A stretch of DNA of 64,000 bases from Methyloligella sp. (GTDB taxonomy: Bacteria; Pseudomonadota; Alphaproteobacteria; Rhizobiales; HXMU1428-3). The notes under the pieces were generated by a model, which saw only the letters and a list, made by a program, of their open reading frames with translations, ran no database searches and had not been told where the DNA came from. The DNA is taken from NCBI GenBank assembly GCA_021604645.1, contig BQJJ01000003.1, forward strand, positions 176,551 through 240,550. Direction: 5' to 3'. Shown here piece after piece: positions 29,780 to 50,446 of the stretch. The first letter of the stretch is position 1. The number at the start of each line of letters is the position of its first letter. The position numbers were made by a program, and so were the translations under genes.

Positions 29780-32056
29780 TTATTGCCAAAAATTGAATTC
29801 GATATTCTCTGGTGCGAGGCAGACTTGGTCGCTGCAGGCTTGTAGCTTTAAAGCGATTTTGTTTGCGACTTGTTGTTGGTTTTTGGGAAAGTCTGTCATG
29901 ATTGTTTTTTCTCCTTCATAGAGTGAGAGTTTCTCTTTATTGAAGGAGAGGGATTTTATTTTAGGTTTTGGAAATTCTTTCGCTTCGATCTTTTGACCAT
30001 TTATTGTTATTTGAGTTGGAATTAAATAGTCTTCTAATGGAGCATTTGAATTGATATGCCAGCCAGGACGTATGGTGATAGTGAGTGTTACTCCCTTAGT
30101 CTCTCTATTTAATTTAAGAGCAACTTTTACATTTCCCTTTGCTGTGTCTCGAATAAACCCGGTGTTGCCATTGCTCGCAGCGTTAACAGCGTTTACCAAA
30201 ACACCTCTCATTTGTGGGTTGCTCAGAGCATGGCCTGAGAGCGCAGAGGCGAGTAAAAGGCTTTTCTTTTTTTGTTCAGAATTGCCATTTTTTTCTGCCA
30301 GTGCATGTAATAATTTCAAGGCAAGCGCGTTGCCTGATGGGATTGGATTGTCATCAAGGGGCGGGAAGGTGCCGATGCCATCTTGCGTTTCTGTCATACG
30401 GTATGGAGTGATTTCTTTTGACCATTGGGAGCCAAATCGTAATTGTAATTCATCGGCCAATCTTTGAACCGTTTTCATAGAAGTTTGGTTCTGTTCTCCT
30501 GATGGTTTGTATGTTTCAAGTGCGAGTAATGCTAATCCAAGCCCTGCGTAATCGGCTAACTGACCGTCAATTCCTATGTTTCCTTTATAGCTTGCGCGAT
30601 AGAGGCGATCTTTTTTAAGCATGTTTTGTGTGATGTAGTTAGCTGCTTTTTTTGCGGCCGTATAATAATTTTCTCGCTCTAGGATGTATGAGGCATGGGC
30701 CAGGGCTTCTATCATCATGGCATTCCAGGATACTATTATTTTTTTATCTTTGTGGGGGGGATTTCTTTTTTCTCGGGCTTGTCTTAATTGTTCAAGTTCA
30801 CCCTTTAATTTCTCATAATAGATTTGTTCGTTTAGTTTTAGTGATTTTGCGATGTCTGCTGGTAGTTGTTCTAAATGCAGAATATTTTTTCCCTCAAAGT
30901 TTCCGTTGTTAGTTAGTGGAAATGTTTTGAGAAGGACAGATGTTTTTGAATTGTAGAATTCCTCAATTTCCTGTTTTGACCAGATGTAGAAAGCACCTTC
31001 AATTTTTTTGCCGTTTTCATCTATGGAGTCTGCGTCTTCAGCTGAGTAGAAGCCGCCGTTCTTGTCTTGCATATCTCGGAGAACATAATCGAATAACCGA
31101 ATGGCTGTTTGTTTGTATCTCTCTTTTCCGGTTAGGGCATAGGTTCTTACAAGAAGGTTTCCGATTAAAGCCTGGTTGTAGAGCATTTTTTCAAAGTGAG
31201 GAACGAGCCAGCGTTCATCAACGCTATAGCGGTGAAAGCCTCCACCTACATGGTCATGTATGCCACCTTTGATCATGCCGTCTAATGCGGCCATTGCGGT
31301 GAATAATGCGGTGTTATCTCCTCTCTCAGCTTGATCCAGAAGAAATGACAGGGCTGATTCTTGAGGGAATTTAGGAGCAACTCCAAAGCCACCGTTAAAT
31401 TCGTCTTTGTTTTTGGTTGTCATTTGCATGGCTTCAGAAATGACTTCTGGCGTTATATTTCGTACCCCTTCAGTTCGGTTCATGTAGCGGTTTATACCAT
31501 CTGCGACCTGCTTGCCTTGTTCAATGAGTGTTGTTTGTTCGGTTTTCCAGAGTTTTACAATATGTTTTAGGGTGCTTAGGAATTGGTCTGGGGGGAGGTA
31601 AGTGGAGGCATGGAATGGTTTTGCATTTGCTGTGAGGAAAACTGAATTGGGCCAGCCGCCTGTGCCTGTCATAGCTTCGGTTACAAGCATAAACTGGCTG
31701 TCGAGGTCAGGGCGTTGCTCTCTGTCTACTTTGATGGAGATGAAATGTTCGTTTAGATATTTTCCAATTTCTTCATTTTCAAAACTTTCGCGGGCCATGA
31801 CGTGACACCAATGACAGGTTGAGTAACCAACAGAGAGAAAGATCGGTTTGTTTTCTGCCTTTGCTTTTTTTAAAGCTTCTTCACCCCAAGGGTACCAGTT
31901 AACTGTGTTGTAGAGATGTTGTAGAAGATAGGGGGATTGGGAGCCGAGTAGTTTGTTGGCAGTTTGTTTTTTGGTTTCTGTTTTTTCAGCTGCTGCGTAT
32001 GAATGACTAAAAAGAATATATAAACAAGTAATAGATATTTGAATGAATAACTTCAT
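29780..32056 (-). CDS. Secreted YyaL/SSP411-like thioredoxin-domain protein with C-terminal DsbD-N-like domain (probable ATG 32056)
   Basis: [36 protein letters not shown]; C-terminal PGWHINSN...[11 protein letters not shown]. Confidence 0.88.
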
Positions 32057-47037: not shown

Positions 47038-47805
47038 TTGTTTGATAAAGTTTATATGAGAGAAAAAACGTTTAAAAAAGCATATCTTATTGATAGTCAG
47101 CCTCTTTATTTAGATGGATTAGAAGGCATTATTAAAGGGCTTTACTCAGATATTATTGTTGAGAAAATTAGTTCCTTAGAAGAATTTTTTTCTAGCAACA
47201 TTAAGAACGAACATCAGTCTTTGATTGTTTTAGACTTTTTGTCTTTTGGTGAGTTTGGCTTGGATATATTGCTTGAATTGAGAATTAAATATCCGAATGT
47301 AAAAATTGTATTGTTCAATGAGTTTGATTGCGAAGAAATTCGAGAAAAAATTAGATATCTTGGCGGTTCAGCTTTTCTGACAAAGCAATTATCTGTCTCG
47401 GAGATAAAATCTGTTTTCAAAAAATTAGAGCAAGATTTACAAACTATTTCGTGTAAAAACTTTTATGTGTCTGTTCGTGGGTACTCCTCTTTCTTTTCGT
47501 GTACGGCTTCCCATCGTTTGACTAAAAAAGAAATGAATATTCTTACGTTTTTAATGCGCGGAACAGTAAACAACGAAATCGCGTCTTTGGTTGGCTTGAC
47601 TGAAAGTACAGTTAAAAGTCACGTCTCTTCAATTATTAAGAAAATGGGTGTTATTAATCGTACGCAAGTCTTTATTGAGATGGAAAAACTTCGCGTGAAG
47701 ACCGCTGTGTGGAACTCTTCATTTTATTCTCCGATTTCATTTCGTCATGTGAGGCGTGTTTATCCGGAAAAGAATGGATTAGAAGAGCTTGGAATGGTTG
47801 TCTGA
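47038..47805 (+). CDS. NarL/LuxR-type response regulator (REC plus HTH)
   Basis: REC-like N-terminus (LIVLD, FLTK); LTKKEMNIL...TVKSHVSSIIKKMGVINRTQ. Confidence 0.85.
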   Translation: MFDKVYMREKTFKKAYLIDSQPLYLDGLEGIIKGLYSDIIVEKISSLEEFFSSNIKNEHQSLIVLDFLSFGEFGLDILLELRIKYPNVKIVLFNEFDCEEIREKIRYLGGSAFLTKQLSVSEIKSVFKKLEQDLQTISCKNFYVSVRGYSSFFSCTASHRLTKKEMNILTFLMRGTVNNEIASLVGLTESTVKSHVSSIIKKMGVINRTQVFIEMEKLRVKTAVWNSSFYSPISFRHVRRVYPEKNGLEELGMVV

Positions 47806-47818
47806 AAGTCGCCCTATA

Positions 47819-48565
47819 TTAATAGTGGTATTTAGAGATCGCAACTGCTTCTGATCGTGTGCTTACCTCAAGTTTTCTGAAGATATTTTTCATGTGAAAC
47901 CTAATGGTGTTTTCTGTGACATTGAGTGCTTTTCCTATTTCTGCGTAGGTTAATCCTTCGCAACAATGTTTGAGGCACTGGGTCTCTCTTGTACTTAAGG
48001 TGGCTTTGTTCCAGCTTTTATTGGCGAGGGACTTGGACATGGTTTTTGAGGGTTCAAACCTTTCTAGTGCTTGCATGAAGCTACTTGCCATCAGCTGGAC
48101 TTCTTCTTTTGAATTTATAAAATTTTGATAAGTGGTTTCATTTTTACCTTGCGTATAAAGTGTTACACCTCTTACTTTCTCGATTGTGTTGAAGGGGATG
48201 AGCCAGGCATGGTGAACGTTAAACAATTTCATTAATCGAAACTGAAATTGAATGACCCAGTTGGATTTGTTTTTTTCTAGTGCTTCTATGTAATCGAAGG
48301 GAAATGATGATTTGCTGATGAGTTTTGTTACGGGGCAATTTTCAATCATTCCTTGATCTACGAACTTTTCTATATATTCAAGACCATAACTTGCGACATA
48401 GTAATTGCCGTCCTGGCGTAAATTTTTCAATGTGTTTATTTGGTAGGAAAAAGCGTCAAATGCTATGTAACCACGGGATGAAATCTGTTGTGAAAAATAA
48501 GCTTTCACGTCTTTCATTGATTTTTTGTTATTGATTTCATTCTTATAGATTTGGAACGATTTCAT
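47819..48565 (-). CDS. LuxR-family regulator with degenerate autoinducer-binding domain (LuxR solo)
   Basis: N-terminal autoinducer-binding-like pattern; LSTRETQCL...TENTIRFHMKNIFRKLEVSTRSEA; no luxI in window. Confidence 0.8.
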   Translation of the reverse strand: MKSFQIYKNEINNKKSMKDVKAYFSQQISSRGYIAFDAFSYQINTLKNLRQDGNYYVASYGLEYIEKFVDQGMIENCPVTKLISKSSFPFDYIEALEKNKSNWVIQFQFRLMKLFNVHHAWLIPFNTIEKVRGVTLYTQGKNETTYQNFINSKEEVQLMASSFMQALERFEPSKTMSKSLANKSWNKATLSTRETQCLKHCCEGLTYAEIGKALNVTENTIRFHMKNIFRKLEVSTRSEAVAISKYHY

Positions 48566-48620
48566 TCGATTGCCTATATGCGGGTATTTTTATGATATCT
48601 CTTATTATAGATTTTTTATG

Positions 48621-48653
48621 GTAAAAGAGGAGCTCTATTTAGAGCTCCTCTTT
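48621..48653 (-). terminator. Terminator after the lipoprotein gene
   Basis: 13-bp IR AAAGAGGAGCTCT/AGAGCTCCTCTTT. Confidence 0.75.
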
Positions 48654-48695
48654 GCATTATCCAACATGATGTTGTTTGAAGGCAAATTGGAAGAA

Positions 48696-49157
48696 TTAAA
48701 ATCCACCGCAAATTGAGGTTATTTGAGCTAGTGAGGGGTTGCTTACACCATTGTTTTGTAGAAAAGAGCGCACGTCATCTATGTCATGATTGCTAAAAGG
48801 AAAGCCCTGGAAAGAGGAAGCTACATTTGAACCTGTGTTGCAGAATATACCTGGATAGGTGTTTTTGGTGAGATGATCAGCGTTAAAGCCTGGATTGGAA
48901 TAGGTCAGGAAATTACGTGGATCCTTATAAATATTGGCGTTGGCCTGACTGTTTGTCATTTCATTAAATTCTGAGTTGTTTTGGTTGAACCGTTTTCTCT
49001 CATTATTTAAAATTTGTTCAAAAAAAGCTGTTTCTTCGGCGCTTAACTGTTCTCCATCGACTAGGCTTAATAAGTATAGTTCGCACCCTCCTAGAGGGGA
49101 AAGTGCAGCGAGCAGAAAAATTGATATGCTTAGGTTTTTTAGGGATTTAAAAATCAT
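48696..49157 (-). CDS. Putative lipoprotein
   Basis: Signal peptide II with lipobox LGGC; two further Cys. Confidence 0.7.
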   Translation of the reverse strand: MIFKSLKNLSISIFLLAALSPLGGCELYLLSLVDGEQLSAEETAFFEQILNNERKRFNQNNSEFNEMTNSQANANIYKDPRNFLTYSNPGFNADHLTKNTYPGIFCNTGSNVASSFQGFPFSNHDIDDVRSFLQNNGVSNPSLAQITSICGGF

Positions 49158-49175
49158 TTGATTTAAGACTCTCTT

Positions 49176-50213
49176 TTAAAATGGTGAGCGGGCGCCAATT
49201 GAAATTATTGTTTGGCGGAAATCATTTCGAGGTAGATTGCTATCGAAATCCGTGAGACTTGCTCTGCCATAGATGTTTAGTCGTTCATTTAGATCGTAAG
49301 AAATTTCTCCAGAGAGACCTGTTCCTTTTATTTCCTCTAATGCGAGGGCGAGAGAGGTCAGCTCTGGTGCGTTATAATTTCCATCAGAATATGAGCCTGT
49401 GAGTGAGACTGTTAAACCAGGTTTTAAAATCCAATTGAAACCGACTTCGAAGCCGTAGAAGTCATTGTCTAGAAATGGATTGTTAAAGGCATCAACTTTG
49501 CCGAAGCGCAATCTGGAAAAAAGACTTAACTGACGAAGTGCTAGAGGTTGATAGGTGAAAGCGATGTCACCTTGATAGCGGTCTTGGTCACTGAGGGTTG
49601 CGAATTCGAATGTGCGGCGTGATATAGTCCCGCCAACGGATATGAGTAATGCGCCTTCGCTGAGTTGATAGTTTTTGTTTAGACTAAGCCGGCCACCGTA
49701 AGAACTTGACATGTGAGTTGGGACTTCGAATTTTTTATTTGTGAAATAATCACTAGAGTAGAAGCCGCTTACCTTTAGAACTGTATCAGAATTGAATTTG
49801 TAATAGAGAGCTGTTTCATTTCCTATAGTGACAGAATTATATTCATCAAATTCTTCGTAACCGAACCAATCAACAATGCCTGCAATGTGTAAAAGACTTC
49901 GTTCTGAGAGCGGAGCAATGAGATGGCCTGCACTGCTTAAGTTTAATCTCTTATCGCTTTTTCGTTTTGGATTGAGTTGGAAAAACTGAGTGATATCTGG
50001 TTCTAAGATACCATCTACATAGTCAGTTGATATATTGTAATTGAATTTTAAAAGAACAGGGCGCTTCGTTTTTAGAAACTTTTTTGCTTGTTCTGACGTG
50101 ACTTGCTGATTGTTGTTCTCTATTGTTTCTTCTGCCTGTGCTGATGAGATGACAGAAACTGCCAAGCTCGCCCCCAGAGCAATGGCGTGGATATTCATTT
50201 GTATTTTGGGCAT
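49176..50213 (-). CDS. Outer-membrane beta-barrel protein of unknown family
   Basis: Signal peptide (AQA); alternating-residue beta strands; terminal ISIGARSPF. Confidence 0.75.
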   Translation of the reverse strand: MPKIQMNIHAIALGASLAVSVISSAQAEETIENNNQQVTSEQAKKFLKTKRPVLLKFNYNISTDYVDGILEPDITQFFQLNPKRKSDKRLNLSSAGHLIAPLSERSLLHIAGIVDWFGYEEFDEYNSVTIGNETALYYKFNSDTVLKVSGFYSSDYFTNKKFEVPTHMSSSYGGRLSLNKNYQLSEGALLISVGGTISRRTFEFATLSDQDRYQGDIAFTYQPLALRQLSLFSRLRFGKVDAFNNPFLDNDFYGFEVGFNWILKPGLTVSLTGSYSDGNYNAPELTSLALALEEIKGTGLSGEISYDLNERLNIYGRASLTDFDSNLPRNDFRQTIISIGARSPF

Positions 50214-50281
50214 ATAGCCTCATCCCCTTTTGTTCATGAATAATATTTGCTCACGCTATCAAAGGGGGGGGTGCGTCGGAA

Positions 50282-50297
50282 CTACATGATCATGTAG
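50282..50297. promoter_or_regulatory. lux/las-box-like palindrome
   Basis: Perfect palindrome CTACATGATCATGTAG (CT-N12-AG); TAGCGT -10-like hexamer at 50258-50253 on the minus strand. Confidence 0.6.
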
Positions 50298-50446
50298 GGG
50301 GAGTGAGGTTTTGCACAGATGGTATTTTGTTTTTATAATTTAATTAACTAGTGAACGCAGAAAAAATGACTTAATTTTCAATTAGCTTTGCCTAAGGATT
50401 TTTATGAAAAACATGTACAATCCGGTTGAATTTAGAGGGGCTGGTT

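Follow-up and report, generated by a model that had tools for sequence, protein, structure and literature searches.

LuxR solos whose ligand pocket departs from that of receptors for acyl-homoserine lactones (AHLs) are common in genomes and, to our knowledge, very few of them have a known ligand, operator or target. LuxR, LasR and QscR act as class II activators from their boxes, and the solos PluR and PauR are sensors of photopyrones and dialkylresorcinols respectively. Here we examine a LuxR-type solo regulator encoded in a stretch of 64,000 nucleotides of DNA from Methyloligella sp., a marine-type member of the Hyphomicrobiales (contig BQJJ01000003.1), called the window below, together with a palindrome at 50282-50297 and the genes for an outer-membrane beta-barrel and a lipoprotein that lie between palindrome and regulator gene.

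Chromatin immunoprecipitation with sequencing placed QscR at a single site, which spans -54 to -29 of the PA1897 operon next to its gene; sites of LuxR-type factors are searched for with the motif CT-N12-AG (PMC6113619). In Photorhabdus, PluR and PauR are solos with the motifs TYDQCS and TYDQYI, each of which activates one adjacent pcfABCDEF operon and so brings about a change of the cell surface and clumping (PMC4414361). Further LuxR solo subgroups, in plant-associated bacteria and fluorescent Pseudomonas, are set by their primary structure and a conserved adjacent gene, and carry substitutions of W57 (TraR numbering, used throughout for pocket positions), with D70 substituted as well in Pseudomonas subgroups H and I (PMC8546723; PMC10134790). 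W57 and D70 are the hydrogen-bond partners of the AHL (PMC8546723). Solos with an altered pocket that are grouped by their sequence and neighboring genes are thus already an established kind. The present locus adds a new and rare LuxR subgroup: its pocket signature reads YFCPYA, it includes a clade with Cys at position 70, its operator can be deduced, and its target genes are outer-membrane orphans. The reading that we prefer, with a probability of roughly 0.7 as judged from sequence comparison, is that the window encodes a QscR-like orphan LuxR protein with one linked target operon, which it probably activates from a class II site in response to a ligand that is not an AHL.

A predicted operator upstream of the barrel gene

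The cassette is self-contained. It comprises a lux-type box, a weak sigma-70 promoter with an extended -10, the barrel and lipoprotein genes, a hairpin, and luxR with a likely promoter of its own. In the window its features are:

50282-50297, no strand: predicted operator CTACATGATCATGTAG, lux-type CT-N12-AG; perfect 16-bp palindrome with a predicted span of -51 to -36
50317-50308, - strand: upstream block TGTGCAAAAC, conserved as TGTG.A.AAC; candidate UP-like element or second site
50261-50253, - strand: extended -10 TGaTAGCGT of the barrel promoter, assigned from conservation; predicted start near 50246
50218-50227, - strand: Shine-Dalgarno region GGGGATGAGG of the barrel gene; all loci keep GGGA.AGGCT.TATG
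50213-49176, - strand: orphan outer-membrane beta-barrel gene, 345 amino acids; signal peptide ending ...SSAQA before EE, about 14 strands, C terminus ...ARSPF
49157-48696, - strand: orphan lipoprotein gene, 153 amino acids; lipobox L-G-G/A-C with Cys25
48653-48624, - strand: hairpin in the spacer between the lipoprotein gene and luxR, 13-bp stem followed by UUUUACC; probably an intrinsic terminator or attenuator
48609-48604, - strand: TATAAT just past the hairpin, read from the sequence as the likely -10 of luxR's own promoter
48565-47819, - strand: luxR-type solo regulator gene, 248 amino acids; divergent autoinducer-binding-like domain and GerE helix-turn-helix

The initial annotation of this DNA had placed a perfect CT-N12-AG palindrome 34 bp from a TAGCGT hexamer, near -43 of the barrel operon. 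Both statements agree with our analysis. CTACATGATCATGTAG is an inverted repeat of the size (16-20 bp) and CT-N12-AG form of a lux-type box, and the distance from its center to that of TAGCGT (50258-50253, - strand) is 34 bp, with 23 nt separating the two elements and a TG at 50261-50260. If the hexamer occupies -12 to -7, with the start deduced from the conserved extended -10, the palindrome would extend from -51 to -36 and be centered at -43.5. The -35 beside it is poor, being TTCCGA in the window and TTCTTG in the distant cassette locus L012. The predicted layout is the one expected of a promoter that depends on an activator bound at a class II position.

The palindrome is the sole copy, at zero or one mismatch, in the whole 3.57-Mb genome. 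Perfect palindromes of 16 bp are nevertheless not scarce: the genome holds 134 (about 2.4 per 64 kb), four of them of the CT-N12-AG type. The palindrome alone is therefore not significant, and it is conservation that counts. On such numbers it might be structural or due to chance, and play no part in regulation, and a near copy with two mismatches (CTACATGGTCATGTAT, 31246-31261), itself most likely due to chance, lies inside an apparent coding sequence.

Conservation and inheritance of the cassette

Among 60 relatives, G003 (92% identity) and G009 (71%), which are separate species of the genus, have the barrel, and G013 has a remnant. Further cassette loci are present in public assemblies (L012, L013, L014-16 and L031). 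A search for related loci with alignment A4 returned only the G009 metagenome-assembled genome (MAG) among genome contigs, and nothing among metagenome contigs.

The sixteen bases of the palindrome are identical in G003, G009, G013, L012, L013 and L014-16, and the flanks have diverged. The 23-bp spacing to TAGCGT is fixed and the TG is retained across seven loci, and every intact locus has TTTG.TAGCGTGA at this same 23-bp distance. When the seven upstream regions are aligned, CCCCTACATGATCATGTAGTTC is invariant, as are the ribosome-binding region and TGTG.A.AAC. The proteins of L012 are only ~57-65% identical to those of the window, yet the palindrome and its spacing are untouched, with TTGACGGGTATCCG in the spacer where the window has CGGCGCACACACCCC. 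Between the window and G003 the promoter is almost identical from TGTG to the ATG, although the synonymous divergence (dS) of the genes is 0.34-1.1. Thus 22 consecutive bases including the palindrome are invariant amid other non-coding DNA that has diverged, at a fixed distance from the -10, and related palindromes recur beside homologous regulators (see below). These comparative data make chance very unlikely as the origin of the palindrome.

Two further interpretations of the conserved sequences were considered and set aside. A CRP-like site in the conserved TGTGCAAAACCTCACT block was rejected, as G009 and L012 do not keep its right half and its phase is wrong. Dam methylation of the central GATC is unlikely, given that the genome has no D12-class methyltransferase and the boxes of the wider subfamily have no GATC.

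The gene order barrel, lipoprotein, luxR on one strand is found in every case, although the genomic contexts number at least three. In the window and in G003 a NarL-type gene and kefB (a kefB-like gene in the window) flank the cassette. In G009, L013 and L014-16 it lies between the gene for a 137-amino-acid secreted protein and an ABC transporter, and in L012 it adjoins a glycosyl hydrolase. In L031 the lipoprotein gene and then luxR are seen at the end of the contig. The copy in G013 (L011, 957-1807) is decayed, with barrel codon ~41 fused to luxR codon ~87 and an internal stop in luxR; it retains the promoter and palindrome, with the -10 changed to TAGCCT. Because the contexts vary, the order is constant and the G013 copy has decayed, the cassette is an accessory element, gained or lost whole, that has no need of the NarL-type gene or iorAB.

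Some features of individual copies may be recorded here. The 137-amino-acid secreted protein of the G009-type lineage belongs to no family; its gene precedes the cassette on the same strand (L010, 101-514; L013, 147-560; L014, 2670-3083) and has no counterpart beside the cassette of the window. In L012 (4431-5472) the barrel gene is split into frames of 155 and 200 amino acids, by a frameshift or by an assembly error in this low-coverage metagenome contig. Comparing the window (47819-50213) with G003 (L009, 7023-9416), dS is 1.13 for luxR, 0.41 for the barrel and 0.34 for the lipoprotein; the approximately threefold higher value for luxR hints at recombination within the cassette.

The genes that flank the cassette in the window offer another possible owner of the palindrome:

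47057-47805, + strand: NarL-type regulator gene; GerE helix-turn-helix
50447-53165, + strand: iorA/iorB-like molybdo-oxidoreductase genes, divergent from the barrel gene

The palindrome could serve the NarL-type response regulator or the divergent iorAB operon. The NarL-type protein has the same kind of DNA-binding domain as the LuxR protein and its gene adjoins the cassette in the window, G003 and G013. A strong iorA promoter (TTTGCA-18-TATAAT, 50310-50339) lies 13 bp from the box. In addition, unrelated metagenome contigs of low GC have the exact 19-mer CCTACATGATCATGTAGTT next to two-component genes of the NarL type. On the other hand, the box accompanies the barrel, lipoprotein and luxR genes where there is neither a NarL-type gene nor iorAB (G009 and L012-L016), and G003 retains the box without iorAB. 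Together with the association of related boxes with distant LuxR homologs described below, this makes ownership by either neighbor improbable, and we continue to assign the palindrome to the LuxR protein.

The block TGTGCAAAAC just upstream of the box overlaps, in the window, the -35 (TTTGCA) of the iorA promoter; it is conserved in every copy of the cassette, also at loci that have no divergent gene. The NarL-type protein has an atypical receiver domain (Response_reg 26.3 bits, cut-off 30.2); its gene is syntenic with the cassette in only part of the genus, and lies outside the mobile unit. The scan of metagenome contigs for the exact 19-mer gave seven matches, none of them to the cassette. 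Those at L021:258, L025:5709, L022:944, L023:5744 and L024:3830 are in contigs that are mostly low-GC and Bacteroidota-like (L024 has 54% GC) and adjoin NarL-type response-regulator or Y_Y_Y hybrid-sensor genes. Convergence on a site for helix-turn-helix proteins of the GerE type may explain these matches, or in part chance, as a handful are to be expected at random.

The regulator and its altered pocket

The C-terminal part of the regulator matches GerE (PF00196) with E = 3.4e-16 in Pfam. The helix-turn-helix pattern E-x3-L-x5-G (E178, L182 and G188 in TraR) is formed by E194, L198 and G204, of which G204 is invariant and E194 nearly so in an alignment of the subfamily. The N-terminal domain keeps the autoinducer-binding fold. 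Over its full length the regulator has QscR as best solved relative (3szt; phmmer E = 1.7e-9, residues 22-241), and 31 of 40 subfamily members match Autoind_bind (PF03472) at E <= 0.01.

The subfamily was collected by a full HMMER search of 1.84 billion cluster representatives with the N-terminal domain (residues 1-175; E <= 0.001), which found only 37 clusters. Named sources are MAGs of Hyphomicrobiales/Rhodomicrobiaceae, Rhizobiaceae, Wenzhouxiangellaceae and unclassified Pseudomonadota, and the protein names are generic. Residues at the pocket positions, with counts from an alignment of 40 members, are as follows:

Y53: Y60 in the regulator, kept; kept in 38/40 of the subfamily
W57: Y64; not conserved in the subfamily
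Y61: F68; Y or F in the subfamily
D70: C77; D in 21 and C in 19 of 40
P71: P78, kept; kept in 35/40
W85: Y92; Y in 37/40
G113: A120; A in 39/40
Residue following G113: invariant W in the subfamily

An earlier alignment by eye had suggested that most AHL-contacting residues are replaced. The phmmer alignment with QscR is ungapped through the pocket region and does not restore them. Moreover the spacing in the regulator, Y-x3-Y-x3-F-x8-C-P-x13-Y, is the same as the Y-x3-W-x3-Y-x8-D-P-x13-W of two canonical LuxR paralogs in the same genome (C1:329387-330965). The six-residue motif is therefore YFCPYA, compared with WYDPWG in AHL-responsive receptors, and only P71 of the six is retained. Both hydrogen-bond partners of the AHL are replaced, W57 by Y and D70 by C. 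Since W57, D70, W85 and G113 are all changed, the signal is most likely not an AHL.

The initial annotation had also called the regulator a solo on finding no luxI in the window. This can be extended to the 99%-complete genome, where no match to LuxI (PF00765) was found (best 13.6 bits, E = 0.07, cut-off 24); synthases of the LuxM/AinS and HdtS types were not searched for. The two canonical paralogs are encoded in tandem, with W57, Y61, D70, P71 and W85 all present in their pockets, and a truncated third copy follows (C1:329387-331386). Given canonical LuxR-type genes in a genome with no LuxI, the organism may eavesdrop on foreign AHLs through these proteins.

The changes to the pocket raise the possibility that the regulator responds to no ligand at all. 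All AHL-contact residues are changed except Y53 and P71, and ligand-independent LuxR solos are a recognised class (PMC10134790). Yet the pocket is conserved in the subfamily: Y53, Y85 and A113 are each present in at least 37 of 40 members, and position 70 is D or C in all 40. Because the replaced positions are themselves strongly conserved, the pocket is more likely to be functional than a relic, and action without a ligand is the lesser possibility.

Taken together, the subfamily is small and coherent, with a signature in which Y53 is kept, W57 is lost, position 70 is D or C, W85 is changed to Y and G113 to A. All but one of the 19 Cys-70 sequences fall in one clade (support 97/90), consistent with a single change.

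Related boxes beside distant members of the subfamily

We examined nine loci of distant subfamily members, with 25-38% identity. In seven of them a palindrome of the same type is present in the nearest upstream intergenic region of luxR, or of the operon that contains it. The chance expectation for CTAC-N8-GTAG is ~0.1 per 8.7-kb locus. These boxes are usually CTACCCG-NN-CGGGTAG, and one is a TCAC...GTGA variant:

CTACCCGTCCGGGTAG: L017
CTACCCGAACGGGTAG: L028, L030 and L034
CTACCCGGCCGGGTAG: L032
CTACTCACCTGAGTAG: L033
TCACCCGAACGGGTGA: L027

In L017 and L030 a TAnnnT hexamer lies exactly 23 bp downstream of the box. The clade of the window keeps the outer CTAC/GTAG and has ATG in place of CCG as the inner triplet. 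No other argument that the LuxR protein, and not its NarL-type neighbor, binds 50282-50297 is as strong as this association of regulator and box in unrelated contexts.

Most of the genes next to the distant members encode large proteins that are secreted or located at the surface, among them an RTX/cadherin protein, an autotransporter whose gene is followed directly by luxR, a thaumatin-like protein, and proteins of 2268, 1002 and 605 amino acids with no assigned identity. This weakly suggests a cell-surface theme for the subfamily. The autotransporter is not kin to the barrel of the window (hhalign probability 4%). In the distant members luxR starts 5-32 bp after its neighbor with no hairpin between, so that an autoregulated operon may be the ancestral form.

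The operon and its outer-membrane proteins

Only 18 nt separate the barrel and lipoprotein genes. The spacer between the lipoprotein gene and luxR is longer, at 130 nt, and holds the hairpin followed by TATAAT. The hairpin has a calculated free energy of -22.7 kcal/mol (z = -4.58), and none of 200 shuffled sequences folded equally well. It was not called in a scan for consensus terminators, because its T tract is weak. A hairpin is present at the equivalent position, with different stem sequences, in G003, G009, L012, L013 and L014. The hexamer that follows is TATAAT in G003 and TATGAT in L012, and is not clear in the G009 group. Given the recurrence of the hairpin across lineages and the TATAAT beyond it, luxR likely has its own promoter. 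A candidate second box before luxR (CAACATCATGTTG, at the lipoprotein stop codon) was rejected, as it is present only in the window.

The barrel has only three clusters of homologs. It matches several profiles below their thresholds: Autotransporter at 20.5 bits (cut-off 26), BBP2_2 (PF10082) at 18.2 bits (cut-off 23.7, and over profile positions 300-375 only), and EpsL (TIGR03014) at 21.6 bits (cut-off 275). Membership of BBP2_2 or EpsL is thus not supported, and these two matches reflect distant barrel-clan similarity only. Slam/DUF560 and BBP2 had been put forward as leads for the barrel, and neither finds support. DUF560 (PF04575) and tetratricopeptide repeat (TPR) models are absent from the Pfam matches, at E up to 10, of all five barrel members. 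The AlphaFold2 model of the barrel has 14 strands, with a mean predicted local distance difference test score (pLDDT) of 61.8, and ~25 residues between the signal peptide and the first strand. In the PDB, Foldseek found only generic barrels (TonB-dependent receptors, TamA, Sam50 and OmpG) with template-modeling (TM) scores of 0.4-0.6; the best, normalized by target, was OmpG at 0.60.

The lipoprotein has the lipobox ...LSPLGG-C25, in agreement with [LVI][ASTG][GAS]C, and is predicted to be lipidated. L22, G23 and C25 are invariant in seven homologs, as are two further cysteines at 106 and 150, and the protein presumably contains a disulfide. The hydrophobic stretch CELYLLSL directly after the lipid-carrying cysteine is unusual. 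No relative was found in Pfam, NCBIfam or the PDB, and profile searches of both the barrel and the lipoprotein against PDB sequences gave no match. Only three clusters of lipoprotein homologs are present among 5.8 billion proteins, and none lies outside the cassette. The AlphaFold2 model of this protein is unusable (pLDDT 47).

No paralogs of the barrel, lipoprotein or luxR were found in the genome. Comparison of the window with G003 shows purifying selection on each of them, the ratio of non-synonymous to synonymous divergence (dN/dS) being 0.10 for the barrel, 0.08 for the lipoprotein and 0.07 for luxR. In view of the tight operon and strict co-occurrence we infer that barrel and lipoprotein form one outer-membrane complex.

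A model for regulation of the cassette

We propose that a dimer of the LuxR-type protein binds the 16-bp palindrome through its GerE helix-turn-helix. From a center near -43.5, abutting the poor -35, it would most likely recruit RNA polymerase as a class II activator; activation is suggested by the position of the box and the weakness of the -35. With no second copy of the box in the genome, the operon of barrel and lipoprotein would probably be the sole direct target, as PA1897 is for QscR. The earlier description of the operon as a dedicated target agrees with this uniqueness. Box, barrel, lipoprotein and luxR are inherited as a unit. Transcripts that read through the hairpin may add a positive feedback on luxR.

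The same protein at the same box could instead be a repressor like EsaR or ExpR, or a ligand-independent regulator, that occludes the -35 until it is released. Occlusion is feasible at -51 to -36, and an extended -10 promoter can work without a -35. However, LuxR, LasR and QscR activate from sites of this position and CT-N12-AG form, that of QscR being at -54 to -29, and a -35 as poor as TTCCGA, or TTCTTG in L012, is what is seen in activator-dependent promoters; the conserved pocket has already been set against ligand independence. We hold this alternative to be unlikely, and prefer activation by a liganded LuxR protein.

A number of observations nevertheless weigh against the preferred reading. 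The -10 of the barrel promoter was assigned from conservation alone, and a scan for consensus promoters did not call that promoter, because it lacks a -35. The box adjoins the good divergent promoter of iorAB in the window, so a second effect there is possible. A site over -51 to -36 fits an EsaR-type repressor equally well. The match of the regulator itself to Autoind_bind is marginal, at 24.3 bits with a gathering cut-off of 23. One of the nine distant loci, L029, shows no box and two others carry variants. Finally, we found no indication of the role of the barrel and lipoprotein, nor of an interaction between them.

A more speculative extension concerns the Cys-70 clade, in which a strictly conserved cysteine stands in place of the aspartate that anchors AHLs. 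This clade might sense its signal by thiol chemistry, the signal being for instance an electrophile, a redox cue or a metabolite that is captured covalently. Barrel and lipoprotein may be a hitherto undescribed outer-membrane pair that displays the lipoprotein at the surface or imports that same signal, closing a feedback loop. We consider this quite unlikely.

These results leave the understanding of LuxR-type regulation unchanged. What they offer is a new subgroup that is tractable, together with two orphan envelope proteins, for which the regulator would be a handle on when they are made. The operator consensus CTAC-N8-GTAG was predicted from comparison alone, and in the clade of the window there is a single linked target operon. 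With a clean subfamily, a predicted operator and one target, ligand screens and binding tests should be simple to design.

Comparison with known systems

The barrel and lipoprotein genes have the organization of several known pairs. In Slam with surface lipoproteins, LptD/LptE, TbpA/TbpB and BtuB/BtuG the barrel gene is likewise followed directly by the lipoprotein gene in one operon. No kinship of sequence or fold with any of these was found, and the present barrel has no DUF560, TPR or plug domain. The resemblance is one of gene organization only.

In the OryR/XccR/PsoR plant-associated group and subgroups D-I of the fluorescent Pseudomonas, a solo regulator also lies beside its target gene. 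The plant-associated group differs in having W57M and Y61W. The neighbors in the known subgroups are pip, mfs1 and others, and the hosts of the present subgroup are uncultured Hyphomicrobiales, Wenzhouxiangellaceae and other Pseudomonadota MAGs. This subgroup is too rare to appear in the surveys that describe the others.

PauR has Y at the W85 position, as does this regulator. However, PluR and PauR both retain the Y61 and D70 that their signals require, whereas here the motif is YFCPYA with Cys at position 70. They are not close relatives, as none of the 37 matches to the N-terminal domain is a named homolog.

QscR of Pseudomonas aeruginosa differs in that it keeps the AHL pocket and binds AHLs, whereas W57, Y61, D70, W85 and G113 are replaced here. 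Its target genes are unrelated to the barrel and lipoprotein, the gene order differs, the present luxR being downstream of the target genes and on their strand, and the sequence identity between the two regulators is low. What QscR with PA1895-1897 shares with this locus is the arrangement: an orphan LuxR-type regulator with one genomic CT-N12-AG site, placed before the adjacent operon.

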